Shown here: piece after piece, positions 41,751 to 63,081 of the stretch | How positions within the stretch are numbered: the first letter of the stretch is position 1 | Layout: each line of letters starts with the position of its first letter | Assembly (NCBI GenBank): GCA_031732755.1 | Contig: JAVMKI010000081.1 | Coordinates: 228 to 64,227 of the forward strand | Length of the DNA stretch: 64,000 bases | Source: Candidatus Contendobacter sp. | GTDB taxonomy: Bacteria; Pseudomonadota; Gammaproteobacteria; Competibacterales; Competibacteraceae | Direction of reading: 5' to 3' | The notes under the pieces: generated by a model | Told to the model about the DNA's origin: nothing | Seen by the model: the letters and a program-made list of their open reading frames with translations, nothing else | Database searches by the model: none | Translations under genes and position numbers: made by a program

Positions 41751-41760
41751 GACCGCTTCC

Positions 41761-45200: not shown

Positions 45201-45212
45201 TTGCACTCCTCG

Positions 45213-45255: not shown

Positions 45256-46016
45256 CAAACCCACCGCCAGCCCCGCCACCGCCAATTCACGCCCAAGGCC
45301 GCCAGCGCCCCGCGCCAACCGGACTCCGGTTCCAGATTCAGTACGCTCCATTCTCGCCCTTCTCCATCACGCACGCTGACGCGCCCGTCCGGCTGGACAT
45401 CCTCGCGACCACACACGTCCAGGGTTCGCAAGCCGCTGGCCAAACCGCCGCCCAACGCCTTGGCGATGGCTTCCTTGCGGGTCCAGCAGGCGAAAAACGC
45501 GGGTTGAATCCGCTCCACCGGCAACGCCTGGAATGCCGCCCACTCGCGCGGCGTACACACTCTTTCGAGGATCGCCGCGGGGTTCACTTTTCGATCCAGA
45601 CGTTCCAAATCCACGCCCACCTCGCGGCGCGCGACAGCGTACAATGCCCGACCGCTGCTGTGGGAAAGATTGAAATACAGGCCGGTTTCCGCATCCACCC
45701 CCACCAACGTCGGCTTGCCGTGTTCGCCCTGCTCGAAACGCAGCGCCGTCGCCGGACGATTCAGATACGCTCCCAGCAGTTCCCGCAGCAAACCACGCCC
45801 AGCGATAAACCGATTCCGATATTCCAGAAAGCGGAATCGCGCCGCCCGCTCCGGTTCATCCGCCGCCAAGGTTGCCGCCAGATCGGCCAGCGGTTTTGGC
45901 GGACGATCCAGATCCACCAACCACAGATGAATTTCGTCAGCGGCTAGAAAGAGGGGCCGAAGCGCTGAGGGCTCAAACTTTTGCTCCGACCACTCGCCGC
46001 TCGTTGCCACTTCCAC
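45255..46016 (-). CDS. Sfp-type 4'-phosphopantetheinyl transferase
   Basis: E..RAARF, RGLLR.LL, GKP, FNLSHS, GVDLE, FF..WTRKEA..KA.G.G; GTG start 3 nt after the upstream GT4 stop. Confidence 0.92.
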   Translation of the reverse strand: MEVATSGEWSEQKFEPSALRPLFLAADEIHLWLVDLDRPPKPLADLAATLAADEPERAARFRFLEYRNRFIAGRGLLRELLGAYLNRPATALRFEQGEHGKPTLVGVDAETGLYFNLSHSSGRALYAVARREVGVDLERLDRKVNPAAILERVCTPREWAAFQALPVERIQPAFFACWTRKEAIAKALGGGLASGLRTLDVCGREDVQPDGRVSVRDGEGREWSVLNLEPESGWRGALAALGVNWRWRGWRWV

Positions 46017-46018
46017 CC

Positions 46019-47287: not shown

Positions 47288-47371
47288 CGTTTTGCTCCCG
47301 CCACGGAAATACCCATGCACAATCCAAATGGGTTCCCTACACTACCGCCACGTCACCCACGGAGCGCTCCC

Positions 47372-47776
47372 ATGAGCCATGTCATCGAAATCAAGGTCCG
47401 GGGCTACCATCTCGACTTGTTTCGCCACGTCAACAATGCTCGCTATCTGGAATTTCTGGAGGAAGCTCGCTGGAGTTTCCTGGAAGTCACCAACAACCTG
47501 ACGATTCTGGACCAATACGGCTATGCGTTCGCCGTGGTCAACATCAACATCAATTACCGCCGCGCCGCCTACATGGGCGAAATCCTGCGCGTCGTCACCT
47601 CGATGAAGTCTATCGGCACCCGCCGGTGCGTGATGCATCAGGCCATCACCCTCAAGGATACCGACACTGTGATCGCCGACGCCGACGTCACCTTCGTCAT
47701 CGTGGATACCCAGGCCGAAAAAGCGGTGGAGCTCACCGGCGAATTGCGGGCCAGCATGGAGCGCATGGCCGGTTAG
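47372..47776 (+). CDS. Hotdog-fold acyl-thioesterase (YbgC/YbaW family)
   Basis: IKVRGYHLD.F.HVNNARYLEFLEEARW, VVNININYR; GGAG RBS; only the last 134 codons of the 45872..47776 ORF are real. Confidence 0.88.
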   Translation: MSHVIEIKVRGYHLDLFRHVNNARYLEFLEEARWSFLEVTNNLTILDQYGYAFAVVNININYRRAAYMGEILRVVTSMKSIGTRRCVMHQAITLKDTDTVIADADVTFVIVDTQAEKAVELTGELRASMERMAG

Positions 47777-48771
47777 TTGCCTGAGTCTGGGGGAAGCGCG
47801 GGCGATGACCGGGTTTCCCAGCGCCAGGCGTGAGCGATGATCGTCGCCAGATCGGCGTAACGCGGTTTCCAACCCAGCTCGGCCCGCGCCCGTTGGGCGT
47901 CCGCCACCAACCGTTCCGGATCGCCGGGCCGCCGCTTCCCGTACTGCACCGGGATGTCCTGGCCAGTCACGGAGCGGGCGGTCTCGATCACTTCCCGCAC
48001 CGAAAAACCGTTGCCGTTGCCCAGGTTGTACGCCGCGCTGTCGCCGCCGGCCCACAGCCGTTGCAGCGCCAGCAGATGGACTTCGCATAGATCGGCGACG
48101 TGGATATAGTCACGGATGCAGGTGCCGTCCGGCGTGTCGTAGTCGGTTCCGAACACCGTGATGTGCGGCCGATGCCCAGTGGCGGCTTGCAGCACCAGCG
48201 GAATCAAGTGGGTTTCCGGTTGATGGCGTTCGCCCAGTTCGCCGTCCGGGTCGGCGCCGGCGGCGTTGAAATAGCGCAGGCTGACCGATTTCAGCCCATA
48301 CGCGACGTCATAGTCTTGCAATATCTGCTCGACCATCCACTTGCCCCGCCCATAGGGATTGATGGGATTTTTCGGATGGTCCTCGTCAATCGGGATGCGA
48401 ACCGGCTCGCCGAAAATCGCCGCAGTGGAGGAAAAGATGAAGTGGCGCACCCGATGCGCCACCATCGCGTCCAGCAGATACTGGGTTTTAACCACGTTGT
48501 TGAGATAGTACTTGGCTGGCTCGCGTACCGATTCGCCGACTTGGATGTGAGACGCAAAGTGCATCACGCCATCGAAACGTGTGGTCGCCAGCAACTCGTC
48601 CAGCAAATCCCGCTCGCCCAGATCGCCCAGCACGAAGCGGCCCTCCACCACCGCATCCCGGTGACCCGCGGACAGATTATCCAGCACCGTGATCTCGAAT
48701 CCGTGCCGGCCCAGCAGCTTGACCATGTGCGAGCCAATATAGCCCGCTCCGCCAACGACGAGTACATGCAT
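47773..48771 (-). CDS. galE: UDP-glucose 4-epimerase
   Basis: GGAGYIGSH, HFAS.I.VGES, FSSTAA..G, YGRGK, LRYFNAAGA, DGTCIRDYIH, YNLGNG.G.SV. Confidence 0.95.
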   Translation of the reverse strand: MHVLVVGGAGYIGSHMVKLLGRHGFEITVLDNLSAGHRDAVVEGRFVLGDLGERDLLDELLATTRFDGVMHFASHIQVGESVREPAKYYLNNVVKTQYLLDAMVAHRVRHFIFSSTAAIFGEPVRIPIDEDHPKNPINPYGRGKWMVEQILQDYDVAYGLKSVSLRYFNAAGADPDGELGERHQPETHLIPLVLQAATGHRPHITVFGTDYDTPDGTCIRDYIHVADLCEVHLLALQRLWAGGDSAAYNLGNGNGFSVREVIETARSVTGQDIPVQYGKRRPGDPERLVADAQRARAELGWKPRYADLATIIAHAWRWETRSSPALPPDSGN

Positions 48772-48878
48772 CGAATCGTTCCTGGTAATTGATTGAATCG
48801 GCTTGCGCACTACCACACTGGAATGATGCCTGCTAATTTAATGAGCATAGACCGAACGCCGCCCAACCGCATCTCGAC

Positions 48879-50480
48879 ATGACTGCTTTCGCCAGCGACG
48901 CCAAACAACAATTCAAGAACCGGCTGTCCCAGAACGCGGTCGTGCAACTGGCCGCCAAGCTGCTGTACATGCTCAGCCGGGTTGGGTTACCGCCGATCAT
49001 CCTCAGCTACGTCAGCCTGGAGGAGTACGGCATTTGGGCCACCTGCTTCATCGTCATCAGCTACCTGGGCATGAGCACCTTCGGCATCGCCAACGTCTAC
49101 ATCCGCTATACCGCCGAATACCACGCCCGCCACGATACCGAAGCGATCAACCGCCTGCTGACCACCGGCCTCGCCGTCACCATTCCGCTCTGCCTTGGCC
49201 TGCAGACGCTGCTGGGCTTGGGGATGCCGCTGTTGCTGGACGCCTTCAAAGTGGCTCCGCACCTGCGCGAAACCGCCGCCATCCTGATTTTCGCCACCGC
49301 CGCCGCGATGATGCTCGACCTGAGTTTCGGCGCGTTCAGCCATGTGCTGGGCGGCTTGCAGCTCATGGTGCGCCAGACCGGCATCTGGGTGGCCAGCTTC
49401 CTGCTGGAGACCGCGCTGATTGTTGGCTTGCTGCTGGCCGGGCTGGGGGTGTACGCGCTGCTGTGGGCTTTCGTCATTCGTTACTTGCTGGCTACCTGGC
49501 TCAGTGCCCGCGCCTGCTTCCAGGTTCTGCCTGGCCTGACCCTCGGCCCGCGCCATTTCGACCGGAGCTTGCTGAAGCTGTTTTACCGCTTCGGCGGCGT
49601 GGTGCAGATTTCCGGGCTGCTGAGCATGGTGCTCTATTCCATCGAAAAGGTGATCGCCGGCGCATTCATCGGGGTGCGCGCCACCGGCCTGTTCGACCTC
49701 GGCGAAAAGCTGCCAGTCATGTCCAGTCAGACCACCTCGGCGCTGAACGCGGTGTTCCTGCCAGCGGTGACCCATCTGTACAGCCTGGGTCAGATGGAAG
49801 AACTGGGCAAGCTGTACCTGAAAGGCGCGCGCTACATCAGTCTATTGACCGGACTGATCATGGGTTTTCTAGCCGGTTTCGCCGCGCCGATCATGACCGC
49901 CTGGCTGGGACCGAGCGAAGAATTCCGCATCACCGCCTTCATCATGGCCTGGTTCACCCTGCCGTTTCACACCCACGTCACCACCGGCCCCTGCACCGCG
50001 CTGCATTACGGGGCCAATCAGCCCGCCCGCACCTTGTTCTATCCGCTGAGCCAGACGGCGCTGGTCGCAATTCTAGTCGGCGGCGCGTTCCTAGCCTTCG
50101 GCGCCACCATTCCCGCCATCACCTATGGCGTTGCCGCCGCCATGACCCTGAGCGGCTGGGCCTACATGGCCTGGTCCAACCGCTTCCTGCAGGTCGAATC
50201 CGGCGTTTTCATCAGGCGGGTGATCATCCCTGGCCTGATGCCCTACGGCTTCGGGCTGGCGCTGGCGGGACTGACCGCGCCCTGGTTCGCCGCCGCCGGC
50301 AGCGACCGCTGGAGCCTGCTGGGACTATTGGCCGTCTGCGGCTTGCTTTATAGCGTGGTGACGACGGCTTTTCTGTACCGGGTGATGTGCGACTGGGGCG
50401 AACGGGAATATCTGCGTCGGCAACTGGCGCACACCCTGAGCGGATTCATCGGCAAGGCGATTGGGCGGAAAACCGGATGA
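48879..50480 (+). CDS. wzx: Wzx-type oligosaccharide flippase
   Basis: ~12-14 TM; LSLEEYG.W-like motif, [10 protein letters not shown]....GLFDL; position inside the EPS locus. Confidence 0.8.
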
Positions 50481-51088
50481 AAAGCTTATTGCGACGCCTC
50501 CTGCGCTATCTGGCCTTCGAACGCGGTCAGGCGGTGGGCTGGTACAAGCGCTTCTGCAATCCTGGCGGCGAGGAATGGGCCGCCTGGCTCAAGCGCCGGG
50601 GGATATTGCATGCCATCGGCGAGCACTGTTCGATTCAGACCAACGTCACCCTCACCGACCCGGTCTATACCCGGCTGGGCAACAACGTGCGGCTGACCGG
50701 CTGCACCCTGTTCGGTCACGACGGCTCGGTCAACATGCTGAATCGGGCCTATGGCCTGAAACTGGATCGGGTCGGCAAGATCGACATTCGCGACAACGTG
50801 TTCGTCGGCCATGGCGCGATCCTGCTGCCGGGCGTCACCGTCGGCCCCAATGCCATCGTCGCTGCCGGGTCGGTGGTCAATCGCGACGTGCCGCCCAACA
50901 GCATCGTCGCCGGGGTGCCGGCGCGGGTGGTCGGCGAACTGGATCGACTGGTCACCCGGCTGCGGGACGAGACCGAGCGGCTGCCGTGGGCGGCGCTGCT
51001 GGCCCAGCGCAGCGGTTCCTTCGATCCGGTGTTGCAGGTGGAGCTGGATCGCATCCGCATCCAGCACTTCTTCGGCGACTCCGACTGA
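50477..51088 (+). CDS. Hexapeptide-repeat (left-handed beta-helix) acyltransferase
   Basis: [48 protein letters not shown]; ATG overlaps the wzx stop. Confidence 0.88.
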
Positions 51089-51111
51089 TCCCGCCATTCG
51101 GGATTTTCATC

Positions 51112-52947
51112 ATGACCCGTTCATGTCGGCCTGACCTCGGCGGCAGCGTCGTTCTGGGCTTGTTGTTGTGGGGCAGCCTGGCGGCGACGGTCATGGCGCA
51201 ATCCCCCGCCGGCAACAGCGCCAATGCCCGCTCGCCGCTCGGCATCAACATCGCCGCGCTCAATTACTGGAGCACGGAATGGCCACTGCTGGACGCGATG
51301 AAGCAATCCGGCGACTGGTTGACCCAATGCGATCGCCGCACGTCCAGCAACTGCAGCCTGCCAGCGCCGGCCAGCGAATGGGATACCCGCGAGCAGTCCC
51401 GGCTGGACCTCGACCCGGCAGGCTGGGTGCGCTCCCTGCCGACGGCCGACGACGTTCTGGTTCACTACCGTAGCGTCGCCACCATGCTGTTCGGCGGCAA
51501 TGGTGGGGCCTATCCGTCCGGTCAGTACACGGTGTCGTATGACGGCGAGGGTACGCTCGAATATGGACTCGATGCGGTCAAGGACGCCGCGCGTTCTCAG
51601 CCGGGCCGCGATGTCGTGAACGTCCGGGCCAGCAACGCCGGAATGCTGTTACGGATCACCGCCACCGATCCTCGCCACGTCGGCGCTTATCTGCGCCATA
51701 TCCGGGTCATCCCGCCCGGCGGTGTTTGCGACGATGACCCGTTCGTCTATGCCGAGAATGCCGAAGCCTGTCAGGCTCGGAACGGTCGCTATACTCCGTT
51801 TACCGCCCTGGACGGGGTCGAACGCTTCCGCTTCCACCCGCTGTTCCTGCGGAACCTGCGCCTTTATCGAGCCATTCGTTTCATGGATTTGTTGCGGACC
51901 AATACCAATGAAGGGGTGGAATGGGCCGAGCGGCCCCGGCTGACCGATGCCCGCTGGAGCAGTCGCAACGGCGCGCCGGTGGAACTGGCGCTGGAGTTGG
52001 CAACGACGCTGCACGCCGACCCCTGGCTCAACGTTCCGGTGCAGGCCAATGCCGATTACGTGGCGCAATTCGCCCGGCTGGCGCGGGCGCGCCTGCCTTC
52101 CGATTCGCGCGTTTACCTTGAATACGCCAACGAAGTTTGGAACGACCAGTTCAGCGCCGGAGCCTGGCTGCAACAACAGGCCGTGCAACGCTGGCCCGAC
52201 CGGCCTGGCGGCCCTTCGCCTTTCACCCGTCGCATCAACGCCTACGGCAAACGCGCGGCCGAAATCTGCGCGCTGTGGAAACGGGAATGGGGCAACGACC
52301 GGGATCGGGTGGTTTGCGTCCTGGGCGGCATGAGCGCCAATCCGTGGGTGGCCGAACAAGCCCTGCAATGTCCGCTGTGGGCGGCGGAAAATGGCGGCCA
52401 TGCCTGCGCCGAAGCGATGGATGCGCTGGCTATCGCGCCCTATTTCGGCGGTCATCTGGGCACATCCCGCTGGGCCAACAGCGTCGCCGCCTGGACCAGC
52501 CGGCCCGACGGCGGTCTAGCCCTACTGTTTCAGGAACTCACCTCGGGCGAGATTCTAGGTGACCCCAAGGCGCTGGCCCTGCCGGCGGTGTTCCGCCAAA
52601 TCGCCGCCCATCGCGTGATTGCCGACCGCTACCGGCTGGCGCTGCTCGGCTATGAAGGCGGCCAGCACCTGGTCGGCGTTGGGCCGGCCCAGAATGACGA
52701 GCGGCTGGAAAAGCTGTTCGTGGCCGCCAATCGCGCCGACTCGATGGGCGCGCTGTACGACGCTTATCTCGACGGCTGGCGGCAACAGGGTGGCCAGTTG
52801 TTCATGCCCTTCAACAGCGTGAGCCGCTATACCCGTTATGGCAGTTGGGGCGCCAAGGAATATCAGACCCAAAGCGCCGCGCCCAAACACCAAGCACTGC
52901 TACGTTTCATCGCCACTCATCCCTGTTGGTGGCCGGGTTGTCGCTGA
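51112..52947 (+). CDS. Secreted putative glycoside hydrolase (cellulose-binding-protein-like family)
   Basis: Signal peptide ending AATVMA-QS; SPLGIN, IRFMD, DPWLNVP, YLEYANEVWN, AIAPYFG, YEGGQH, YGSWG. Catalytic assignment is inferred. Confidence 0.65.
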   Translation: MTRSCRPDLGGSVVLGLLLWGSLAATVMAQSPAGNSANARSPLGINIAALNYWSTEWPLLDAMKQSGDWLTQCDRRTSSNCSLPAPASEWDTREQSRLDLDPAGWVRSLPTADDVLVHYRSVATMLFGGNGGAYPSGQYTVSYDGEGTLEYGLDAVKDAARSQPGRDVVNVRASNAGMLLRITATDPRHVGAYLRHIRVIPPGGVCDDDPFVYAENAEACQARNGRYTPFTALDGVERFRFHPLFLRNLRLYRAIRFMDLLRTNTNEGVEWAERPRLTDARWSSRNGAPVELALELATTLHADPWLNVPVQANADYVAQFARLARARLPSDSRVYLEYANEVWNDQFSAGAWLQQQAVQRWPDRPGGPSPFTRRINAYGKRAAEICALWKREWGNDRDRVVCVLGGMSANPWVAEQALQCPLWAAENGGHACAEAMDALAIAPYFGGHLGTSRWANSVAAWTSRPDGGLALLFQELTSGEILGDPKALALPAVFRQIAAHRVIADRYRLALLGYEGGQHLVGVGPAQNDERLEKLFVAANRADSMGALYDAYLDGWRQQGGQLFMPFNSVSRYTRYGSWGAKEYQTQSAAPKHQALLRFIATHPCWWPGCR

Positions 52948-52961
52948 AGGCCGACCGAATC

Positions 52962-55565
52962 TCAACCATAGCTGGCCCGATAGAGCTTCAGGAACAGATA
53001 GCCGCTGACCGTGACGAACAACGCCAGGGCGACCGCCATGGAAAATACGCCAGATGATCCGTAAGAGGTCAGCACCGATTTCATGGGGATGACCATCTCA
53101 TGCAATACAAACATTGGGAACGCCAGCATCCCGGTCACGGCGGCGAACTGCAGCGCGAATCGGCCAGTACGGCTCATATGCTCGTACCGCCGCAGCAAGG
53201 ATTCCATCCAGGCCAATAGCAGCATAACTAGCCCGGTATAAACCAGCCAGCGCCAGATATTGTTGGCCGATACCGGCCAGTTGAACCAGTTGCCCGCGTC
53301 CGGTTGATGAAGAGACACGATAATGCCGGCCAGCAGAACAAATAAACCAGCCAGATTCAACACATTCAGGGATTCGCCTTTGGAAAGCCACCGCTGGATG
53401 CTGATGCCAATCGCCATTCCCATCAAGCTCCCCGAGAGCATCTGAAAATAGGCATACTTGGCGGTAAGCAACAGTTTGGCCAATTCGACCAATCCCTCCG
53501 CCTTATCATCGGCAATCTGCTTCATCAAAAGGTAATCAATGGCATAGGAACACATGGACAACACCAGCGCCAGTAGAACCGGATACTGGCTTTTGGTCAA
53601 CAGCCAAAAGATGGGATAAAGAGTTGCTGTCACCAGCAGATAATAGGTGAGCACCGAATAGAAAGAGTTGGTGAAATCCGTGAAGGTCAGCCCTGGATTA
53701 TTCCGCCATTTGGCCCAGAATATGGCCGCGCCCAACAACAGGATACCGGTCAGCAATAACAGAAAGGTTTTTTTCAGAATTCCCTTCAGTCGCGTTTCAT
53801 CGTTGAAAAAAAGTGGAAACAGGGCGTAACCCGCGCCGACCCCATAGATTACGGCGAAGCCCGGCGTACCCATGGCAAAAAATGGGGCGAAAGCGGAGGT
53901 GATCCAGGCTGAAGTACCCAATAAACGCTCAAAAATTCCTTGATGCCAATGCGCGATGATGACCGACATGACCATCAATCCACGCACCACGTTGATCGCC
54001 ATGCTGTTGCGCATACCAGGACCGCGCACCCGGTGCTTCTGTTGATCGACGCCTTCGGCGGGGTGCATGCGCTGAGCGATTTCGCGAATACTCAACCCTT
54101 GCAGTAACCCTCTGGAAATATCCGCTGGCACACCCCGGCGTTCCATTTCAATCAGCGCTGTCAGCGCCGACAGGGAATCACCGCCCATGTCGTAGAAATT
54201 GTCCTCCACGCCGATATGCTCGGTTTCCAGCACACTTTGCCAGATCGACAAGATCGTCCGCTCATCGTCCGACAGGTCCGCAATGATCACCGGCTGGGTC
54301 ACGCTGGTGGTTTCAGGGCCTGCCGCCTTGATCTGTTCCTCATACCGTTGCGCCAGCGCCTTGCGCCGCACCTTGTTCGTGTCAGTGACGGGAAAAGCGT
54401 CCAGAGTCAGCCGTTTAATCACCCGCTTATTGTTAATCCCGAAGGCCAGCAGCATCTCGCTGGCGGCGTTCATCAACGCCGTCTCATCAATACTCTGATG
54501 ACGGAGCGTGGTAATCAGCACCGCATGGCCAGTCAGCGAGTCGTTGACCGCTGCCACGGCGAGACCTTCGCTGAGACTCAGCCGGTCGCGCAAATCGCGT
54601 TCCAGCGCATCCGGCGACAGTTTGACGCCACCGCAGTTGATCAGATCGTCCGCCCGACCTTCATAATAAAGATAACCCTGGTCCAGACGACCCAGATCAC
54701 TGGTCCGCAGCCAACCCTGATCATCCACGTTGGTGACGTATTCACCGTTCTTCAGTAATTGTCGGGCCACATGTGGACCCCGGATACAAATTCGGCCTTC
54801 GTCAGAGATCCGAACTTCCGTCTGGCCATACACCCGACCCACCGATTCCAGTAGGTCGCCATGGGTCTGGTCAACTCTCAGGAAAGTCGTCCGCGATGCC
54901 TCGGTCAATCCATAATGTTGCGCAATGATGGCATTGGGAAAAAGAGACTTCAGTTGTTCCTTCTCACCCCGGCTCATGTATTGACTGCCGATCTCGATCC
55001 ATTTCAGGCTCGCGGTTTCAGGGCCAAACAGACGTTTATTTTCCAAAAGAATACGCCAGAGGCTGGGCACCGCCGATACGGCGTTAATTTCACCGGATTG
55101 CAATAGCTCTCTGATTTCCAGCGGATCAAAACCATGGGGCGGTAAAAAGCTGGCGCCACCCGCCGCCGCCACGGCGCGAAACCGCCCGAGACCAAAGGAG
55201 AAATTCGCCGGCACCCCGACATATTCCCGGATGGTGCTGTCAACCTCCATCACCTGATTGAGTCGCTCCGTGACATCGGAGAGCGCCCGGTGAGTCAGTA
55301 AAACTCCCTTGGGCTCACTCTCGGTACCTGAGGTGAAAGCGATTTGGGCCAACGCGTCGTCACGGGGGAAAACATAAATCTCCTTGAACCAGCCCTTTGC
55401 ATCGTCCGGCTCCACCACACGGGTCACGCCGGTCTGCTGGATTCTGCTATCATCGGCATGGCGCAATAGAACCACCATCTGTTGGTTCCGATAACATTTG
55501 AAAAGCGTTTGCACATAGGAAATGGAATTCCTGGACACCACACCGACGATCTGTTGATGGCTCAT
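52962..55565 (-). CDS. Adenylation domain - carrier protein - AT3-like membrane acyltransferase fusion
   Basis: ANL motifs FTSGTESEPKG, HYGLTE, RTSDLG, GRADDLIN.GG.K, PVTDTNK; carrier motif NFYDMGGDSL (Ser codon 54174-54176); C-terminal ~10-TM domain starting INVVRGLMVMSVIIAHW. Start at 55565 chosen from RBS spacing (55571 and 55595 are alternatives). Confidence 0.82.
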   Translation of the reverse strand: MSHQQIVGVVSRNSISYVQTLFKCYRNQQMVVLLRHADDSRIQQTGVTRVVEPDDAKGWFKEIYVFPRDDALAQIAFTSGTESEPKGVLLTHRALSDVTERLNQVMEVDSTIREYVGVPANFSFGLGRFRAVAAAGGASFLPPHGFDPLEIRELLQSGEINAVSAVPSLWRILLENKRLFGPETASLKWIEIGSQYMSRGEKEQLKSLFPNAIIAQHYGLTEASRTTFLRVDQTHGDLLESVGRVYGQTEVRISDEGRICIRGPHVARQLLKNGEYVTNVDDQGWLRTSDLGRLDQGYLYYEGRADDLINCGGVKLSPDALERDLRDRLSLSEGLAVAAVNDSLTGHAVLITTLRHQSIDETALMNAASEMLLAFGINNKRVIKRLTLDAFPVTDTNKVRRKALAQRYEEQIKAAGPETTSVTQPVIIADLSDDERTILSIWQSVLETEHIGVEDNFYDMGGDSLSALTALIEMERRGVPADISRGLLQGLSIREIAQRMHPAEGVDQQKHRVRGPGMRNSMAINVVRGLMVMSVIIAHWHQGIFERLLGTSAWITSAFAPFFAMGTPGFAVIYGVGAGYALFPLFFNDETRLKGILKKTFLLLLTGILLLGAAIFWAKWRNNPGLTFTDFTNSFYSVLTYYLLVTATLYPIFWLLTKSQYPVLLALVLSMCSYAIDYLLMKQIADDKAEGLVELAKLLLTAKYAYFQMLSGSLMGMAIGISIQRWLSKGESLNVLNLAGLFVLLAGIIVSLHQPDAGNWFNWPVSANNIWRWLVYTGLVMLLLAWMESLLRRYEHMSRTGRFALQFAAVTGMLAFPMFVLHEMVIPMKSVLTSYGSSGVFSMAVALALFVTVSGYLFLKLYRASYG

Positions 55566-55653
55566 GAGCATTTCCCTGATTAACCGGTATTGCAAAGGTG
55601 TCTTAAATAAAGGTGTGGCTTCGCGTTAAACCCGCCTGAGAACCCTGGCAATT

Positions 55654-56505
55654 ATGGCATACATTAAACCTGGCTTCTTCGGGCGGATGTCTCGCCGGCT
55701 CCGACCCAAGGGGAGAATATGGACGTGGGCCATGCCGCTGACGTTGCTGGGCGTAGCGGTGGGGGTGGGCGCTATTTATCTCCGTCTGCCTGTGACGGAT
55801 GCCTGGGAGCCAGCTATCGCCGCCTTCGAAGCACAAGACCGCCAACAGCCACCCCTTCCTGGCCAGGTGGTGTTCGTCGGTGGCTCCAGCATCCGGTTCT
55901 GGGACCATCTGGCTGCCGACATGGCGCCGATTCCGGTGCTAAACCGGGGTTTCGGCGGCGCGCGGTTGCGCGATGTGCCGCACTATGTCGACCGGGTGAT
56001 TCTCCCCTATCGACCCCAAGCGGTGGTGCTTTATGCCGGCGAAAACGATCTGGGTGCCTGGTGGGCTTGGCCGGGCCTGATCGTGGACCGGTTTCAGCAC
56101 TTGGTCGAACGCCTGCGCCAAAGCGATCCAAAACTGCCGATCCTGATGCTGGCCATCAAGCCTTCACCCTACTTTGCCGCCCGGCTGGAGCGACAGCGGG
56201 AAGCCAACCGGCGACTGCGCGCCTATTGTGAAGCCACGCCGGGACTGTTCTTCATCGACGTAGCCAGCCCCCTGCTCGATGCCCAGGGGCGTCCCCGGCC
56301 CGAACTGTATCGGGACGGGCTGCACCTCAATGCCGCTGGCTACGCGTTGTGGCGGGAGCGGGTCCGACCGGTTTTGCTGACCGTGCTGGGCCTCAGCTCA
56401 AAATCCGCCGGAAGCGATACAACGGCGCCGGCGCTTCGGCCACCGGCGCTGTCTCCAGCGTCTGCTCCCGGCCAGAATGCAGATAGCCCTCCGCCCAGCC
56501 GGTGA
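55654..56505 (+). CDS. SGNH/GDSL-family protein with N-terminal membrane anchor
   Basis: Block I FVGGSSIRFW, block II NRGFGG, block III YAGENDL, block V DGLH; TM MPLTLLGVAVGVGAIYL. Confidence 0.85.
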   Translation: MAYIKPGFFGRMSRRLRPKGRIWTWAMPLTLLGVAVGVGAIYLRLPVTDAWEPAIAAFEAQDRQQPPLPGQVVFVGGSSIRFWDHLAADMAPIPVLNRGFGGARLRDVPHYVDRVILPYRPQAVVLYAGENDLGAWWAWPGLIVDRFQHLVERLRQSDPKLPILMLAIKPSPYFAARLERQREANRRLRAYCEATPGLFFIDVASPLLDAQGRPRPELYRDGLHLNAAGYALWRERVRPVLLTVLGLSSKSAGSDTTAPALRPPALSPASAPGQNADSPPPSR

Positions 56506-57781
56506 CCAGGAACAGTAACGCCACGGTTTGGTTGCCCATGTACACCGTGGCCACGGAAATCAGGTAACAGACATAGACGCCGGCCAGGGTGAAGGCCAGC
56601 GAACTGCCCAGCGGTTGCGGATTAGGTTGACTCATGGCGTGGCGGATCAGCCGCACGATCATCCCCAGCAGAATCGTCAGGAACAGGGCCAGGGCGATTT
56701 GGCCGTGCATCAGAAACAGCAGCAGGTAGTAATTATCGATGGAAGGCTGGCCCGGCACCTTGGGCCATTTGGTCAGGCCCCAACCCCAGGTAGCCTGTTC
56801 CTTGGCGATATCCATGTAATTGGTGATCAGTTCCAGGCGATAGGCGGCGGTTTCCTGGTTTTCGGTCTTGGCGTTTTGCCGGCCCACTCCGGCCCATTGC
56901 AGGAAACCGATGAAGATCGGCAGGCAGATGCCGAACAGGAAGACCAGCAGGATGCCGACCCCAATCCAGCGATTGCGCATCCGCCCGATGAACACCACCA
57001 CCGCCGCGATGACGCCGGCCACCCATGGCCCCTTGACCAACGTGATGAGCGCGCCGCCCAGCATTCCCAGGGTATACATTTGCGCCTCGGTCAGCTTGGG
57101 CCAGGGCAGCCACTTGAACCAGGGGTGGCGCGGCTCGGTCCAGGCACCGCTCCATTCCAGCCAGCGTTGGATTCGGTAACCGGTCACCATCATGATCCCG
57201 GCCAGGATGGCGTGACCGTAGGGACCGGCGGTGCGCGCCAGACCCCAACGGAAGGTGATGATCCAGCCCAAGCCCTGCCCCGGAAAGAAGGGACCGAAGA
57301 TTTTCTGCCAGGGGTTGACCCCGAAGCGCGATTCGTACAGACAGATGATGGCGACGATGAACAGACAAACCACGATTTTCTTGGCGAAGGCGACTCGCCC
57401 ACCCAGTGGTTCCACCAGGCTCTTGGCCAGCACGTAGGGGATGACCACCGAGGTCAGCATGGCGAACATCAGGTTTTGAGCATCGTTGTAGCCCGATGCT
57501 CGATATTCCGAATAGGCGATTACCCCAGCGAGGCCGTACACCACCAAGTCGAAGGGGGTAAATCGGTAGCCGGGCGACCCGCGCACGAGAAAGACGATGA
57601 ATACCGCCAACACCGCTGCCTGGTTGGCGGTCGGATCGGGCAAACCCGGCGCGACCCAACGGTAATAATCCGGGAACAGCAGCAACGCGGGCAGATAGAC
57701 GTTGAAAAAGGCGAACTGGGGCGAGCGAACCAGCGCGAAGTAAACCGCGAACAGGGCTGGAATCAGGGCGAGAATCGCCAT
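56393..57781 (-). CDS. wzy: Wzy-like polymerase / O-antigen ligase family membrane protein
   Basis: ~12 TM; R..GPYGH.ILAG, ETAAYR.EL, WGWG, SIDN.YL in the large periplasmic loop; lies in a wzx/wza/wzc locus. Confidence 0.75.
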   Translation of the reverse strand: MAILALIPALFAVYFALVRSPQFAFFNVYLPALLLFPDYYRWVAPGLPDPTANQAAVLAVFIVFLVRGSPGYRFTPFDLVVYGLAGVIAYSEYRASGYNDAQNLMFAMLTSVVIPYVLAKSLVEPLGGRVAFAKKIVVCLFIVAIICLYESRFGVNPWQKIFGPFFPGQGLGWIITFRWGLARTAGPYGHAILAGIMMVTGYRIQRWLEWSGAWTEPRHPWFKWLPWPKLTEAQMYTLGMLGGALITLVKGPWVAGVIAAVVVFIGRMRNRWIGVGILLVFLFGICLPIFIGFLQWAGVGRQNAKTENQETAAYRLELITNYMDIAKEQATWGWGLTKWPKVPGQPSIDNYYLLLFLMHGQIALALFLTILLGMIVRLIRHAMSQPNPQPLGSSLAFTLAGVYVCYLISVATVYMGNQTVALLFLVTGWAEGYLHSGREQTLETAPVAEAPAPLYRFRRILS

Positions 57782-57873
57782 GGCGCACGTCGGGTCTCAA
57801 AAGAAAGCCTGTACAAAAATGCAAGCGACTGATTGTGCAAGTGGGCTTGCTCGTGACTTAGGGTCAATCATCG

Positions 57874-58071
57874 CTACTCTTTCGGCGCCTCACGCTCCGC
57901 GCGCCAATCCGATGCTTCCGCTTTGGCCGGTTCTGATTCGTCATCAGACTCCTCATCTTCCTGACAGATTTGGTCACCCTTGGCAGTTTTCACATAATCG
58001 CATTCCCGGTGCCCGCAGCCGGCTGTACTGACCAAAATCGCGATTGCCGCCAGCGCAATCCGGTATTGCAT
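57874..58071 (-). CDS. Small putative lipoprotein (65 aa)
   Basis: MQYRIALAAIAILVSTAG-C lipobox, Cys pair, acidic tail; fills the gap between the acyltransferase and wzy. Confidence 0.55.
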   Translation of the reverse strand: MQYRIALAAIAILVSTAGCGHRECDYVKTAKGDQICQEDEESDDESEPAKAEASDWRAEREAPKE

Positions 58072-58122
58072 GATGATCCCGCCTTGCCGAAAGATAACCA
58101 CCGTCGCGAGAGGCGCGCGCTA

Positions 58123-58713
58123 TCAACCCGCCATTTTCGACCATGGTCGGGCCGGCACGCCGACCACCACCGCGCCCGGCGCGACATCGCGAGTCACGAC
58201 CGCATTGGCGCCAATCACCGCGCCATCGCCGATGGTGACGCCGGGCAGCACCATCACTCCCCGCCCGATCCACACGTTGCGCCCGACCCGGATCGGCGCG
58301 GCGTCATGGCCGGAATAGCGAATGGCCTGATCGCCGCCGAAGCGGTGGTTGGCATCGCGCAAGCTGGCGTATTCGCCGATCATCGTACCGGCGCCAATCT
58401 GGATTTCCTGAAACGCCACGACATGGACACCCCGCGACATCACCACGTCATCGCTGATCACGATCCGGCCCGGTGCCTGGGTCTCCAGATACAGGTCGGG
58501 ATAGAGAAACAGGTTTCGGCCCAACTCGACGCCGCCGGTTCCGCGCACCTCCGCCACGCCCAGGATCACCACCGACGGGTCCACCGGTCCGGTGATGCTG
58601 GCGCGCAACCGGGCGTGCGCCCACACCCGCCGCCCGGCTTCGCCCACGGTCGCCGCCAGCCTGGCCAGCGGCGTCAGGACTCCCACCAAAAACCGTTTCG
58701 CCTGTCCGCTCAT
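58123..58713 (-). CDS. Hexapeptide-repeat acyltransferase (maltose/galactoside O-acetyltransferase-like)
   Basis: DANH, IRVGRNVWIGRGVMVLPGVTIGDGAVIGANAVVTRDV...VVVGVPAR. Confidence 0.9.
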   Translation of the reverse strand: MSGQAKRFLVGVLTPLARLAATVGEAGRRVWAHARLRASITGPVDPSVVILGVAEVRGTGGVELGRNLFLYPDLYLETQAPGRIVISDDVVMSRGVHVVAFQEIQIGAGTMIGEYASLRDANHRFGGDQAIRYSGHDAAPIRVGRNVWIGRGVMVLPGVTIGDGAVIGANAVVTRDVAPGAVVVGVPARPWSKMAG

Positions 58714-58726
58714 CGCCCGCTTCCGC

Positions 58727-59749
58727 TCACTTGTATTCGATCAGACCGCGCCGCCGACCGCGCCAGCGATCCCGGTAGTAGCCAAGCTGGCCGACCAAGA
58801 TCGGAATCTGTTGCAGGTGGGAATGAACACCGTACAGGAACCGGGTCAGCGGGTCGCGGCTTTTCCAGCCGACTTTGAGCGCGGTGCGCAGCGCCAGCGC
58901 CAGCCACCCGCCGATGACCAGCAACGGGATAAGCACCGATCCCAGCAGCGCCCCGCCAACGACCAGCGCCAGCGTCAGCAGCAACACGCCGCCGCGAATC
59001 CAATTACGCCGGGCATCGTCCTCCCATAGTGGGGTCGCGGTGCCGCGAAAGCGCGCCGCCACCTCGGCGTAGGCGTGGCCGGCCCGCACCGCTCGCCGCC
59101 AGTATTGCCGCCAGCGGGTCATCGCCAGGTCGTGGCCGGTCATCGGCCGGTCCACGTGCAAGATGACGTAACCGCGCGCTCGTAGCCGCTGGCACAGTTC
59201 CGGTTCCTCACCGGCGATCAGGCTGGCGTCGAATCCATCCACTTCCATCAAGGCCATGCGGCGTATGAGGGCATCGCCGCCGCAGAACTCGGTCATCCCC
59301 GGCGGATAAATCCAATCCAGGTCCAGCACCCGGTTGTACAACGATGCTTCGGTATGAATTTCCCGACGGTGACCCCAAACCACACCGACCTTTGGGTTCT
59401 GGAATTCGGGCAGCGAGTCCACCACGAACCGGGGATGCAGGATCGTGTCGCCGTCCAGGAACAGCACGAACGGCGCCCGCGCGACCCGCCACCCGGCATT
59501 GCGGCCCAGCGCCGCCGAGGGTCGTTCCGGTCGCACCGTCAACACCCGCGCGCCTAGCGCCGTCGCCCGCTCTGGACTGCCGTCGGTGGACGCGGAATCC
59601 ACGTAGATCAACTCGACCGGTCCGCCGGGATCGGCCATCCCCCGCACCGATTCCAGACAGCGCACCAGCCGCTCGCCCTCGTTGCGACCGATGACAACCA
59701 CTGACAGCACCGGGACCGCGGGCGAGTCCGGCGTTACGAATTCAACCAT
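58727..59749 (-). CDS. Glycosyltransferase family 2
   Basis: SVVVIGRNEGERL, YVDSASTDGS, GRNAG, FLDGD, GEEPELC; C-terminal TMs; start ATG 59749. Confidence 0.9.
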   Translation of the reverse strand: MVEFVTPDSPAVPVLSVVVIGRNEGERLVRCLESVRGMADPGGPVELIYVDSASTDGSPERATALGARVLTVRPERPSAALGRNAGWRVARAPFVLFLDGDTILHPRFVVDSLPEFQNPKVGVVWGHRREIHTEASLYNRVLDLDWIYPPGMTEFCGGDALIRRMALMEVDGFDASLIAGEEPELCQRLRARGYVILHVDRPMTGHDLAMTRWRQYWRRAVRAGHAYAEVAARFRGTATPLWEDDARRNWIRGGVLLLTLALVVGGALLGSVLIPLLVIGGWLALALRTALKVGWKSRDPLTRFLYGVHSHLQQIPILVGQLGYYRDRWRGRRRGLIEYK

Positions 59750-60810
59750 TCTCCACCTCCCTCCGTCAGCAATCGTTCGTAATCGGCCAGGCGTTCGGTC
59801 TGGGAAAAGCGGGTGGCCAGCGCTCGGTCGCCGCCCGCAACCCAGCGGTTCAGCAATTCCGCGGGCGCTTCGTGCAATTCCCGCAAGCGGGCCGCCAGCG
59901 CCTCGGCGTCCTCCGCCCGGAAGCGTCCGCCCGATACGCCCTCTTCCACCAGCAGCGCCGTCCCACCGCTGTCGGGAACCAGCACCGGCACCCCCGCCGC
60001 CATCGCTTCCAGAATCGCCAGCCCGAACGGCTCGCTCGGACACAGATGCAGCAACAAATCAGCGGCGGCCAGTTCTTCCGCCACCGCCTCGGTAAAGCCC
60101 ACGAAAGTGACGTTGGGATGCCGTTCGGCGGCGCGGGCGCGCAGCTTCTCCAAATCCCAACCAGACCCCAGAATCCGGAACGACAGCGCGCCCAGCTCCG
60201 GATGACAATCCAGCGCATCCAGCAGCAGATCCACCCGCTTGATCGGGTCGATGCGCGACACAATCACGATGTTGCGCACGCCAGCGGATGTGAAAGGCAA
60301 CCGGCGCGGCGCGCTTCGCACCCGTTCATCGGTCAGAAAATTCTCGATCACCCAGATTTTGCCAGGGGTGACGCCATTGGCGATCAGCCGTTCTCGCACG
60401 AAACCGGACACCGCCACCAGTTTCACGGCGGTGGGATTGAGCAGGCGCTTGCGGCCATAGCTCAGCCGCTCGTCGGTCCCACCATGCACCAGATGCAGAT
60501 GGACCGATGGACGCCGATACCAGACGTTCAGCGCCAGAAAGACCAGCGAATGCGCCACGCCGGTCGCCACGAACGCCAGTCGCCGATACCGGGCCAGCCA
60601 AGGGCGCAGACGCCGGGCAAATTCACGGGGATGGGTGAACGGCTCACCGGGAATGCCCAGCCGCGCGGCTTCCGCCAGTGCTGGACCCGGTGGCGCCAGC
60701 AACACCGGCGCGAAGCGTTCGCGCAAGCCTTCCAAGGTCGCCAACGCCATCCGTTCGGTGCCGTACAGATTGCCGCTGTGCAAGGCATAAACCAGGGGAA
60801 TAGCCATCAC
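59734..60810 (-). CDS. Glycosyltransferase family 4
   Basis: YGTER, VAVSGFV, IENF, VSRIDPIKR, EPFGLAILEAMAAG. Confidence 0.88.
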   Translation of the reverse strand: MMAIPLVYALHSGNLYGTERMALATLEGLRERFAPVLLAPPGPALAEAARLGIPGEPFTHPREFARRLRPWLARYRRLAFVATGVAHSLVFLALNVWYRRPSVHLHLVHGGTDERLSYGRKRLLNPTAVKLVAVSGFVRERLIANGVTPGKIWVIENFLTDERVRSAPRRLPFTSAGVRNIVIVSRIDPIKRVDLLLDALDCHPELGALSFRILGSGWDLEKLRARAAERHPNVTFVGFTEAVAEELAAADLLLHLCPSEPFGLAILEAMAAGVPVLVPDSGGTALLVEEGVSGGRFRAEDAEALAARLRELHEAPAELLNRWVAGGDRALATRFSQTERLADYERLLTEGGGEWLNS

Positions 60811-60843
60811 GATATTCCGATCTTAGGGTGGGCGTGGTTGCAA

Positions 60844-63081
60844 TCAAGCGATAGGTGGTGACGACGCGGGCTTGCGCTTGAACCAGCGCCAGATTCGACG
60901 CCAGCGGGATTTGCCGACTGCATTTTCGCTGGCTGTGGCAGCGGGTTCAGCCGCCCTTGGACCGGTGTCGAGGTGCGCATGGAGCAGGCGAACGGCAGCG
61001 GCTTCGCTCTCCTCGTATTTCTTTACCGTATCCGCGTAGTAACCCCCACCCTTGTAGACCTTCAGGCGGTTGACGACCACCCCGAACACTTGGGGATACG
61101 CCTTCTCCAGCAAGCGGGCCGCTCGTCCGAGTTCATCCGGCAGGACATGCTGGGCGCTAACCAGCAGCAGCAGCACATCGGCATAGCGCGCCATGAATTC
61201 GGTGTCCGCCGACAGCAGTACCGGCGGCGTGTCCAGCAGGATCACATCGTAGCGCTCCAGCAGCGGATCGAGGGTTTGCGGGAACCGGTCATAGAACGGT
61301 AGATGGCGTTGCACCGCCAACCCAACCGGGATGCGGTCCGGCAACGTTCCTTGCGCCGGAACGATCACCGAGTCTAGGGCGACTTCACCGTTCAACAGAT
61401 CGATCAGGCCCGGCGCCAGCGAATCCGCGAGATAACGATCATCGGGTTGCAGGGCGTTGGCCTCGACCACGATCACCCGCAGGCCATCGCGCGCGAATTC
61501 CCGCGCCAGGTCCAGCAGCAGATCGGTGACGCCGCTGCCGGCCTTGACCGCCGTGAGCGCGATCCGCCGGGCGCCCCGCTGACGTTCCTCGCGGCTCAGC
61601 GCCAACATCAGCCGCCGCATCTGATCGCCCCAGACCAGTCGGTTCTCCACCGCCTGCTTGTCGAGCAAGGCGGCGACCGGCGCAAACCCCAGCAAGCGAT
61701 GCACCTGGGCGGCGGTCTTGATGCGCTTATCCAGAAGATCGATCCCGATGGGCACGATCAGGCCCAAACCGATGGCCGCCACCAGCGCTAGCGCCACCAT
61801 TTTCTTCGGCCCGCCGCCGATGGGATAGTCGGGCGGCAACGCCGCCGACTGGATGCGCAGAAATCCCGGCGCCTCGGTTTCCAGGGTCAGAAAATCGATA
61901 CGTTCGTTCACCGCGTCCAACTGCAAACGAATCCGCTGGAGATTCTGGGTCAGCGTCAGCCCTTCATTGTAGTTGCCAATGAACCAGTTGGCGCGCTCCT
62001 GCACCTTCTGCTGGTCGGCGGCTAGGGCCCGTTCGATTTGGCGGGCTTCGCGCACCGCCGTCCGCCGCTGTTCCAGCAACTGAGTGCGGGTGTTGTTGGT
62101 GAGGGTCTCGGCGTAAACCCGAACATCCTCGTCCAGATCCTTCAGCTTGCGCTCGGCCACGGCGCGCAGCGGATGCTGCGGCGACAACCCGCTGATTTCG
62201 TTGAGCAGGTCGCCACGTTTCGCCCACAGATGATACTTGAGGCTGTTGAGCCCGCTGTCGTTGGCCACGATTTGCGCCACCGCCGCATCCAGCGCCATTT
62301 TCGACGCCGACCCCTTGGCCGGGTCGTAGGCGTCGAACGCCGCCTGCACCTCGGCCAGCTTGCGCTGGGCTGTGTTCAGCGCGACTCCGCTCTCCTGCAA
62401 CAAGCGCTCGTAGGGATTGTTCTGGGCGTTCTCATCAAAAGCGGCCACCCCCAGTTGCTCGGCTAATTCGGCGCGGCGCTGGGCTTTTTCCCCCGCTTCC
62501 CGGGCCAAATCCGCCTGGCGCGCCCGTAGGTTCGCCAGCCGCTCATCGCTGGCATACAGATCCTCTTTCTTGGCGGCCTCAAGGAAAACGCGCAGATAAA
62601 TGTTGAGTGTTTCCGCCAGGCCCTCGGCCTGACCGCCCCCGAGCGTGACGCCGATCAGATAGGTATTCTTGATGGCGCGGGCGCTGACCGCCGCCCTCAA
62701 CCGCAATGCCGCTCGATGTTCGCTGACGCCTGGCGGTTGCCAGACCGCCCGGTATTTGCCCAACTGGCGCAAGGCTTCCAGCGCAATGTCGTACCGGTTG
62801 AGGTTACGGACCTGTTGCTCGACGTATTGCAGATATTGAGTGTTGGACTGGAATTCCAATTCCTGGTCGCTCTTGAGCACCTTGGCGAACCGGGGCGCGA
62901 CATAGATCGCCGCATTCACTTCGTAGCTATAGCCCGGCGATACATACCAGGCCAGTGGCGCTCCAATGGAAGCCATCAATAGCATGATGGCCAGCACCAG
63001 CCGCTTGCGTTCGCGCAGGCTGACCAGCGGCATGAATGTGCCGCTGGGCGGTAACGGTTGCGCGGGGACTGCATCGGTCAT
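60844..63081 (-). CDS. wzc: Wzc-like polysaccharide co-polymerase with degenerate tyrosine-kinase domain
   Basis: Two TMs flanking a coiled-coil periplasmic region; P-loop region TAVKAGSGVT, Walker B ILLDTPP, Tyr-rich YKGGGYY...Y. Confidence 0.85.
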   Translation of the reverse strand: MTDAVPAQPLPPSGTFMPLVSLRERKRLVLAIMLLMASIGAPLAWYVSPGYSYEVNAAIYVAPRFAKVLKSDQELEFQSNTQYLQYVEQQVRNLNRYDIALEALRQLGKYRAVWQPPGVSEHRAALRLRAAVSARAIKNTYLIGVTLGGGQAEGLAETLNIYLRVFLEAAKKEDLYASDERLANLRARQADLAREAGEKAQRRAELAEQLGVAAFDENAQNNPYERLLQESGVALNTAQRKLAEVQAAFDAYDPAKGSASKMALDAAVAQIVANDSGLNSLKYHLWAKRGDLLNEISGLSPQHPLRAVAERKLKDLDEDVRVYAETLTNNTRTQLLEQRRTAVREARQIERALAADQQKVQERANWFIGNYNEGLTLTQNLQRIRLQLDAVNERIDFLTLETEAPGFLRIQSAALPPDYPIGGGPKKMVALALVAAIGLGLIVPIGIDLLDKRIKTAAQVHRLLGFAPVAALLDKQAVENRLVWGDQMRRLMLALSREERQRGARRIALTAVKAGSGVTDLLLDLAREFARDGLRVIVVEANALQPDDRYLADSLAPGLIDLLNGEVALDSVIVPAQGTLPDRIPVGLAVQRHLPFYDRFPQTLDPLLERYDVILLDTPPVLLSADTEFMARYADVLLLLVSAQHVLPDELGRAARLLEKAYPQVFGVVVNRLKVYKGGGYYADTVKKYEESEAAAVRLLHAHLDTGPRAAEPAATASENAVGKSRWRRIWRWFKRKPASSPPIA

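Follow-up and report, generated by a model that had tools for sequence, protein, structure and literature searches.

This work concerns a gene of Candidatus Contendobacter sp. (Gammaproteobacteria, Competibacteraceae) that encodes an adenylation domain, a carrier domain and a polytopic membrane domain of acyltransferase fold in one polypeptide and that lies within a Wzx/Wzy-type exopolysaccharide (EPS) locus. The window, i.e. the whole stretch of DNA analysed, comprises 64,000 nucleotides of contig JAVMKI010000081.1 (GenBank assembly GCA_031732755.1, positions 228 to 64,227, forward strand), and positions without prefix refer to it (Table 1). The gene, hereafter the fusion, stands in an open frame of 877 codons (52962..55595, minus strand). 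Because close homologues are 867 amino acids (aa) long and begin with MSDQQIVGVV, its start was set to the ATG at 55565. A first-pass annotation, made from the sequence without database searches, had proposed a gene at 52962-55565, and with the start taken from the homologues these coordinates match exactly. Its description of one open reading frame (ORF) joining an adenylation domain, a carrier and a membrane domain of about ten helices is borne out by the ORF itself, by Pfam matches to AMP-binding and PP-binding and by a ten-helix structure model. The A3, A5, A7, A8 and A10 motifs, the GGDSL of the carrier and the R..H motif of the membrane domain were located where it had placed them. As it had also stated, condensation, ketosynthase and thioesterase domains are missing: in the Pfam scan of the 867 aa protein these, like reductase release domains, found no match. 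The protein is not a nonribosomal peptide synthetase (NRPS), though relatives of its membrane domain terminate condensation-adenylation-carrier modules.

Table 1. Position, strand and basis of assignment of the fusion, its domains and the associated genes
Feature	Position	Strand	Basis and remarks
Whole gene, adenylation-carrier-TmAT fusion	52962..55565	-	867 aa plus stop; ORF, start inferred from homologues
ANL adenylation domain, aa 1-415	54321..55565	-	PF00501; N-terminus about 90 aa short; A3, A5, A7, A8, A10 intact
Carrier (thiolation) domain, aa 428-503	54057..54284	-	PF00550; predicted phosphopantetheine site Ser464
10-helix TmAT/AT3-like membrane domain, aa 515-867	52965..54023	-	Fold, homologues, profile comparison
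Membrane-anchored SGNH/GDSL protein	55654..56505	+	PF13472, 80 bits; divergent from fusion, 88 bp apart
Secreted protein of no known family, about 610 aa	51088..52947	+	Convergent neighbour of fusion
Sfp/HetI-type 4'-phosphopantetheinyl transferase (PPTase)	45255..46130	-	PF01648, PF22624; between two GT4 genes
Wzx/Wzy-type EPS locus	39210..63998	.	Pfam scans
Secreted-protein homologues in other genomes	L005:8295-9926; L002:2279-5182; L047:3700-5538		

More than 1,000 homologues of the fusion exist; the database calls them just 'AMP-binding protein', and NCBIfam holds no model for this architecture. In 49 homologues of 40-82% identity all adenylation and carrier motif residues listed below, as well as R528 and H539 of the membrane domain, are invariant. 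Due to this invariance and the more than 1,000 homologues, the motif set is far beyond chance. More than 20 independent metagenomes of sludge and wastewater contain the same fusion sequence, and metatranscriptome contigs from four RNA runs (sludge, biofilm) cover the gene at 95-99% identity. The fusion gene is real and no assembly artefact, and it appears to be transcribed in sludge and biofilm; such contigs indicate presence alone, and carry-over of DNA is possible. Its GC content at third codon positions (GC3) is 0.66, whereas most genes around it have 0.76-0.84, and 2 of the 17 species of the genus carry the fusion. This contrast and this distribution suggest that the fusion was probably acquired horizontally as a cassette.

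The adenylation domain matches PF00501 (AMP-binding) with 99 bits over profile positions 152-382 of 384. It holds the A3 motif TSGTESEPKGV (55302-55334), A5 YGLTE, A7 TSDLG, A8 GRADDLINCGGVK and the A10 lysine, Lys398. Its N-terminal subdomain including the A1/A2 region is incomplete and has about 90 residues fewer than canonical ANL enzymes. NCBIfam ANL models align from about profile position 110, and residue 52 of the fusion pairs in the alignment with residue 146 of oxalate-CoA (coenzyme A) ligase. The short N-terminus is a family-wide trait (homologues listed have mostly 860-890 aa). A frameshift or mis-assembly as its cause was ruled out, because the divergent SGNH gene is just 88 bp away, because all homologues share the short form and because the gene recurs in the metagenomes mentioned. 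The full-length AlphaFold2 model has a mean pLDDT of 84; for the adenylation domain it is confident, most block means as far as residue 300 being close to 90 or higher. Among solved structures, oxalate-, 4-coumarate-, malonate- and o-succinylbenzoate (OSB)-CoA ligases and FadD8 come closest, at about 25% identity; DltA ranks below all of these. The closest solved enzymes activate varied acids, and the identity of about 25% gave no substrate assignment. The A4-equivalent is NFSFGLGR, with Ser123 at what we take to be, by PheA numbering and without structural superposition, the position where amino-acid-activating domains carry the alpha-amino-binding Asp (FDxS). The near-invariant His217 and the invariant Arg225, which presumably correspond to the specificity positions 322 and 330 of PheA, would weakly hint at a polar or anionic acid as substrate.

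The carrier domain scores 33.1 bits against PF00550 (PP-binding, cut-off 20.8). GGDSL lies at 54171-54185 and the Ser464 codon at 54174-54176; G461, G462 and S464 are the invariant residues of this domain. In the AlphaFold2 model the carrier forms a helical bundle of aa 433-500 with helices 433-446, 464-476, 481-484 and 493-500. The PPTase of the locus reaches 167 bits with the NCBIfam model HetI, which is below its cut-off, and it is the sole PF01648 match in the 98%-complete genome, in which no enzyme of AcpS type was detected. Because it is the only detectable PPTase of the genome it is no evidence of dedication, and a 'dedicated PPTase' was dropped as support for the same reason and since the gene is not syntenic in relatives. 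The enzyme may also serve the fatty-acid acyl carrier protein (ACP). The same genome encodes a second carrier fusion of 951 aa on contig C22 (L034:3592-6447, minus strand), which combines PP-binding, a full AMP-binding domain and a PlsC-type acyltransferase (PF01553) and is Aas-like with a carrier of its own.

Membrane domain and its linkage to carriers

Concerning the C-terminal part, the first-pass annotation had proposed an AT3-type domain and had expected Acyl_transf_3 (PF01757) in addition to AMP-binding and PP-binding. The latter two were found; Acyl_transf_3 is not matched by the protein itself. PF01757 does match 26 of the 49 homologues at E<=0.1, spanning profile positions 3-321 of 326, and a few relatives reach its gathering score of 31 bits (P0063 31.1, P0104 32.1, P0151 41.8). 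When aligned globally by hhalign to eight genuine AT3 proteins, taken from this genome and related ones, the domain was collinear with them over 305 columns (E 5e-6, probability 71%); in this alignment R-X10-H, FFVISG and YLWH of the AT3 proteins pair with the membrane domain, the last of them at H822. Mutagenesis of OafA has defined the AT3 signature residues as R/K-X10-H in helix 1, FFXISG in helix 2 and RXXR in loop 2-3 (PMC7448272). In the fusion, R528-X10-H539 reads VVRGLMVMSVIIAH (53949-53984). The segment GTPGFAVIYG aligns to FFVISG by its part GFAVIYG, with an invariant Phe and an invariant Gly five residues apart. Loop 2-3 contains the invariant R592, followed by K594, K598 and K599; a strict RXXR is absent and is approximated by these residues.

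The model of the domain alone has a pLDDT of 89, a pTM of 0.89 and ten long helices. In the Foldseek comparison its sole credible match in the PDB is human HGSNAT with acetyl-CoA (8vkj; TM 0.51-0.53, probability 0.98-1.0), which is also the only structure of the TmAT superfamily among the PDB matches. All others, every transporter included, stay below a TM of 0.25. With the full-length model ANL structures dominate the matches, and this search is uninformative for the membrane part. HGSNAT and AT3 have been unified structurally in the TmAT superfamily (PMC12423673). The C-terminal domain thus has, as proposed, an acyltransferase fold and not that of a transporter. By homologues, profile comparison and fold it is a divergent member of the AT3/TmAT superfamily. 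Of the AT3 assignment, the part carried by homologues, fold and R-X10-H stands; a clean membership in PF01757 does not.

Lys and Arg number 11.0 inside versus 5.5 outside, which for the ten helices gives an N-in/C-in topology. The adenylation-carrier module thereby comes to lie at the cytoplasmic (donor) end of helix 1, where the topology of AT3 enzymes demands it. Helix 10 is the last one, with neither an 11th helix nor a C-terminally fused SGNH domain behind it. H822 is conserved. Loop 5-6 contains the conserved extracytoplasmic residues E694, K697, K703, Y704 and Y706 (ELAKLLLTAKYAYF). An acyl-Tyr shuttle with the motif FXYXXF is found in DltX and PatA, and OatA forms an acetyl-Tyr (PMC12148441). 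By analogy, the AKYAYF of loop 5-6 might be such a shuttle: it resembles FXYXXF and is reminiscent of the acetyl-Tyr of OatA.

To survey the architectures in which the domain occurs, its profile was searched against 1.84 billion cluster representatives at E<=1e-3. Just 320 clusters match, and because they are so few the clade is narrow and AT3 proteins in general were not drawn in. We classified 143 newly listed representatives with hidden Markov models from our own alignment. Among the matches listed, 129 hold a complete membrane domain, and 121 of these 129 have at least one carrier domain directly upstream of it. About eight look like complete stand-alone domains; the remainder of the 143 are fragments. 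The carrier is hence near-obligately fused to this clade of membrane domains. What lies further upstream varies (A, adenylation; T, carrier; C, condensation; M, membrane domain). According to the Pfam architectures there are short A-T-M proteins of about 870 aa, proteins of 1065-1140 aa with a short A domain and three or four tandem carriers before M, C-A-T-M proteins of about 1400 aa and T-M proteins of 437-474 aa; a full-length NRPS-type A-T-M of about 980 aa has its AT3 match at 41.8 bits. Overall, two to four tandem carriers precede the membrane domain in A-T(2-4)-M forms, which would argue for flux through the carrier. Because the carrier stays the immediate neighbour while the upstream loading machinery changes, the membrane domain most simply takes its substrate from the carrier. 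In the tandem-carrier and C-A-T-TmAT relatives (P0145, P0153, P0127, P0130; L008:3607-7029, L007:383-4633), the TmAT domain may also act as a release domain of an assembly line.

The EPS locus and its acyltransferase slot in sister species

The locus reads, in order, Wza, a Wzc-like gene, GT4, GT2, a hexapeptide acyltransferase, Wzy, the divergent SGNH gene, the fusion, the convergent gene of a secreted protein of no known family, a second hexapeptide acyltransferase, Wzx, an epimerase, GT4, the PPTase, GT4, two GT2, a third hexapeptide acyltransferase, WecG and a priming Bac_transf. The SGNH protein contains the blocks GGSS, GFGG, GEND and DGLH and with them the full Ser/Gly/Asn/Asp-His set; its nearest solved structures are a sialate O-acetylesterase and a PAF acetylhydrolase. 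By analogy it is a candidate extracytoplasmic partner of the fusion and may be either a terminal transferase, like DltD, PatB and OatA's C-terminal domain, or an editing esterase like Ape1.

Besides the two species that carry the fusion, two others of the genus show a weaker match of about 380 aa. In one of them, G001, the locus is mirror-syntenic, and the slot of the fusion is taken by a stand-alone TmAT protein of 369 aa. Compared with the proteins of the window, the G001 proteins are 93% (Wzy), 77% (SGNH), 76% (secreted protein), 88% (hexapeptide acyltransferase) and 91% (Wzx) identical; the slot protein shares 27% identity over 221 aa with the membrane domain of the fusion. The stand-alone protein matches PF07786 (HGSNAT_cat) with 24.7 bits (cut-off 22) and keeps R-X10-H and the YAY loop. 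Its gene is of native composition (GC3 0.78). The other species, G002, is arranged like G001, and tblastn found no match to the secreted protein of about 610 aa in its locus. Because a stand-alone TmAT and the fusion fill the same slot, this conserved EPS locus appears, judged by its gene order, to have a dedicated position for a membrane acyl translocase beside the SGNH protein. Its occupant is either a stand-alone enzyme that presumably depends on CoA or the putatively self-loading fusion. This exchange is the strongest evidence that the protein of the window acts on this EPS.

The context in other lineages was surveyed at 32 loci, with polysaccharide genes sought within 10 kb of the fusion. 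They are present in 13 of the 18 informative lineages, among them Competibacteraceae, a Burkholderiales metagenome-assembled genome, several Cellvibrionaceae and Cyanobacterium sp. DS4, so the proposed residence in polysaccharide loci holds for most homologues. In Nitrincola and Methylophaga the fusion lies within exosortase EpsH/EpsI EPS loci, in Cellvibrionaceae and a cyanobacterium in Wzx/Wzy loci, and a metagenomic A-T4-M locus adjoins a Wzy-like gene. A gene for a TonB-dependent receptor is the neighbour of the fusion in Rubrivivax and one Cellvibrionaceae (L049:7301-9496, L050:9196-11073); at L050 it is followed by cobalamin-salvage genes.

The secreted protein of about 610 aa found no match in Pfam, NCBIfam or the PDB. 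By tblastn, homologues lie immediately upstream of the fusion in Marinibactrum (1e-43) and, with Ig/cadherin-like domains, about 5 kb from it in Cyanobacterium sp. DS4 (1e-108), and also near the fusion in Competibacteraceae. The protein may be a further partner or an EPS-processing enzyme. The SGNH ORF ends in a low-complexity tail rich in Pro, Ala and Ser; this tail shares 113 nt (56393-56505) with the 3' end of Wzy, the convergent gene. At the priming end of the locus a complete Bac_transf gene (39210-39959) stands between two minus-strand genes, 37737-39206 and 39952-41223, which contain only the C-terminal half of Bac_transf, fused in one gene to NTP_transferase plus hexapeptide and in the other to WecG. 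The Wzc-like gene (60844-63081, minus strand) was recognised by sub-threshold scores only (AAA_31 25.3 bits, cut-off 27; Wzz 18.2, cut-off 25.5), which is compatible with an earlier separate note of a degenerate kinase domain.

Proposed mechanism and alternatives

With moderate confidence we favour the reading that the fusion is a self-loading, carrier-dependent transmembrane acyltransferase which tailors the EPS of the surrounding Wzx/Wzy locus. The architecture, motif conservation, fold, topology, carrier linkage, locus context, slot exchange and transcription were observed or computed; from these we infer, as follows, all steps of the chemistry along with substrate, acceptor and the part played by the SGNH protein. 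The short ANL domain would adenylate a free carboxylic acid other than an alpha-amino acid and then bind it as a thioester to the phosphopantetheine arm of the carrier next to it, at Ser464; the Sfp-type PPTase of the locus would have put this arm on. The acyl-pantetheine arm, chemically the business end of CoA, would replace acyl-CoA in the cytoplasmic funnel of the TmAT domain; within helix 1, Arg528 is expected at the inner end and His539 nearer the outer one. The acyl group would move to the periplasmic face, maybe via an acyl-Tyr on the conserved AKYAYF loop, and would end up on the repeat unit or the polymer of the EPS, with or without the membrane-anchored SGNH protein as an intermediate. 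There is precedent for such relays: DltB takes D-Ala from DltC-phosphopantetheine and passes it through a Tyr to the SGNH-type DltD, and the AT3 domain of OatA forms an acetyl-Tyr which feeds its SGNH domain (PMC12148441).

Several observations weigh against this reading. All characterised AT3 enzymes use acyl-CoA, and a 2022 review argues against ACP donors (PMC9558356). The adenylation domain is about 90 residues short at the N-terminus, a form that may be inactive. The pTM of the full-length model is 0.50, which makes the interdomain geometry unreliable. The PPTase is missing at this position in the relatives L006 and L011 and may be a housekeeping enzyme. The membrane domain itself, the C-terminal 350 residues, has no match in Pfam, even at E<=1, or in NCBIfam; a profile search with its alignment against PDB sequences returned spurious ankyrin designs only, Foldseek against viral models (BFVD), aimed at AT3 proteins of the phage Oac type, gave no match, and local hhalign to AT3 proteins is weak (probability 28%). 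Block II Gly of the SGNH protein is of hydrolase type and esterases are its closest structures; in Competibacteraceae its gene stays adjacent, whichever of fusion and stand-alone TmAT is present, and distant lineages do not show this neighbourhood. Finally, 5 of the 18 lineages are without polysaccharide context (Rhizobacter, Rubrivivax, an uncultured bacterium, a Microcoleaceae cyanobacterium and one Cellvibrionaceae).

These five lineages, two of them with the fusion beside a TonB-dependent receptor gene, are the ground for an alternative in which the carrier does feed the TmAT domain and the acceptor is a membrane lipid, a lipoprotein, a periplasmic glycan or a secreted small molecule, residence in EPS loci being incidental or lineage-specific. 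The C-A-T-TmAT and full NRPS-type A-T-TmAT relatives point in the same direction, since they imply aminoacyl or peptidyl cargo in other branches. Yet AT3 acetyltransferases of O-antigen such as OafA are also commonly encoded outside their clusters (PMC9558356), polysaccharide genes accompany the fusion in the other 13 lineages, and the slot exchange takes place between the SGNH and Wzx/Wzy genes of a locus that is otherwise 76-93% identical. We regard a non-EPS acceptor as unlikely. The donor is the point of a different objection, namely that the TmAT domain uses ordinary acyl-CoA, e.g. acetyl-CoA, and that the adenylation-carrier module is dead, loaded in trans, or has a separate or regulatory function. 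The acyl-CoA dependence of all characterised AT3 and HGSNAT enzymes, the truncation of the adenylation domain and the sister species that manages with a stand-alone TmAT in the same slot would fit this. We nevertheless judge it quite improbable: no catalytic residue for adenylation or thiolation varies among 49 sequences with identities as low as 40%, which speaks for selection on activity, a carrier is directly upstream in 121 of the 129 complete representatives among the matches listed, and two to four tandem carriers, which raise flux, would be senseless for an unused module.

It is also conceivable that the membrane domain is an anchor, an exporter or a hydrolytic release channel for the carrier-bound acid and that the protein secretes or releases a small acid. 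In favour of this, the acceptor is a putative one, the sequence of the domain has diverged far from PF01757, and no SGNH partner was found in most lineages. This we consider very improbable in view of the R-X10-H, FFXISG-like and YLWH-like motifs, which are invariant and constitute the catalytic signature of AT3, of the transporter folds, none of which exceeds a TM of 0.25, and of the conserved residues in loop 5-6, which imply an extracytoplasmic active surface.

Acyl decorations alter charge, hydrophobicity, gelling, phage recognition and immunogenicity of surface polysaccharides, and the known AT3 routes install only those acyl groups that are already present as CoA esters. If self-loading by the fusion is true, an acid could be attached straight from the free-acid pool, and the TmAT pore would accept a protein-tethered pantetheine. 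The study of acyl transfer across the membrane by AT3 would then gain a donor that is built-in, stoichiometric and trappable. The slot exchange would be a natural means of changing the acyl group on the same EPS; the polymorphism of fusion and stand-alone enzyme between sister species predicts that their EPS differ chemically, in an acyl substituent. In natural-product enzymology, such a protein would point to a release domain of a new kind, embedded in the membrane. As to wastewater biology, the closest named homologues and the sludge metagenomes containing the sequence indicate that the host is a glycogen-accumulating organism of the Competibacteraceae, whose EPS contributes to the properties of flocs and granules.

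Comparison with known systems

The first-pass annotation knew of no characterised EPS-tailoring enzyme with this architecture, and our full-text literature search for adenylation/carrier/AT3 fusions, which also covered combinations of NRPS with AT3 and of exosortase with ACP or ligase, did not turn up a description of it either. 'AT38' in a Xenorhabdus preprint was retrieved as a literature match and is irrelevant. The AT3 review (PMC9558356, 2022) and the paper on the TmAT superfamily (PMC12423673, 2025) leave adenylation-carrier fusions unmentioned. With the AT3 O-acyltransferases (OafA/OafB, OatA, Oac, ExoH/ExoZ) and HGSNAT the fusion shares the ten-helix N-in/C-in fold, the R/K-X10-H of helix 1, apparently also a motif like FFXISG in helix 2, and a His that is conserved in helix 9. 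Like them it resides in loci of surface polysaccharides and is paired with SGNH, which is fused in OafA and OatA and a separate gene here. A difference is that the members characterised so far all use acyl-CoA and that this clade carries a fused adenylation-carrier module; moreover, the protein of the window misses PF01757 and is without the 11th helix and the fused SGNH domain.

The one-polypeptide, Dlt-like machine that had been proposed is supported in its logic by fold, context, carrier linkage and slot exchange, and not in its ancestry. Like DltABCD(X), the system would run from adenylation over a phosphopantetheinyl carrier and a polytopic acyltransferase with catalytic His to an SGNH-type protein and a polymer, and the acyl-Tyr shuttle FXYXXF resembles the AKYAYF loop (PMC12148441). 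However, DltB is an MBOAT with a fold unrelated to AT3/TmAT, the Dlt proteins are separate polypeptides, and DltA activates an amino acid, whereas the adenylation domain here lacks the alpha-amino-binding Asp. The protein of the window has a TmAT fold and found no MBOAT match in the Pfam scan; a DltX-like microprotein was not identified, no systematic search for one having been made. 'Dlt-like' therefore refers to logic, not ancestry, and the fusion is no member of the Dlt family.

In the AlmEFG system, which adds glycine to lipid A in Vibrio cholerae, a dedicated adenylation enzyme and a carrier feed an envelope-modifying membrane acyltransferase, as here. AlmG differs in being an LpxL-type lipid A acyltransferase at the cytoplasmic face, and the system consists of three separate proteins with an amino acid as substrate. 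Epsilon-poly-L-lysine synthetase (Pls) is likewise a single adenylation-carrier module fused to an integral-membrane catalytic region that releases the product at the membrane. Its six helices, however, are interleaved with three condensation-like domains and have no TmAT fold, and it makes a homopolymer instead of decorating a glycan.

The MBOAT-SGNH pairs that work on acyl-CoA (PatA/PatB, AlgI/J/X, WssH/I) also combine a separate membrane translocase with an SGNH transferase on an exported polymer; they differ by their other membrane fold and by lacking a carrier domain. MBOATs are known with acyl-CoA (PatA) and with carrier donors (DltB), whereas AT3/TmAT enzymes are known only with acyl-CoA. 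The fusion and its relatives probably represent something new in this comparison, a carrier-fed branch of the AT3/TmAT acyltransferases, since a carrier-tethered donor has not been described for this enzyme class. In its widest form, the idea is that obligately carrier-dependent TmATs are the missing fourth quadrant of transmembrane acylation, that in C-A-T-TmAT proteins the domain also off-loads NRPS products and exports or attaches the cargo outside the cell, and that an acyl-Tyr shuttle on AKYAYF may take part; we hold the arguments for and against this wider proposal to be evenly balanced.

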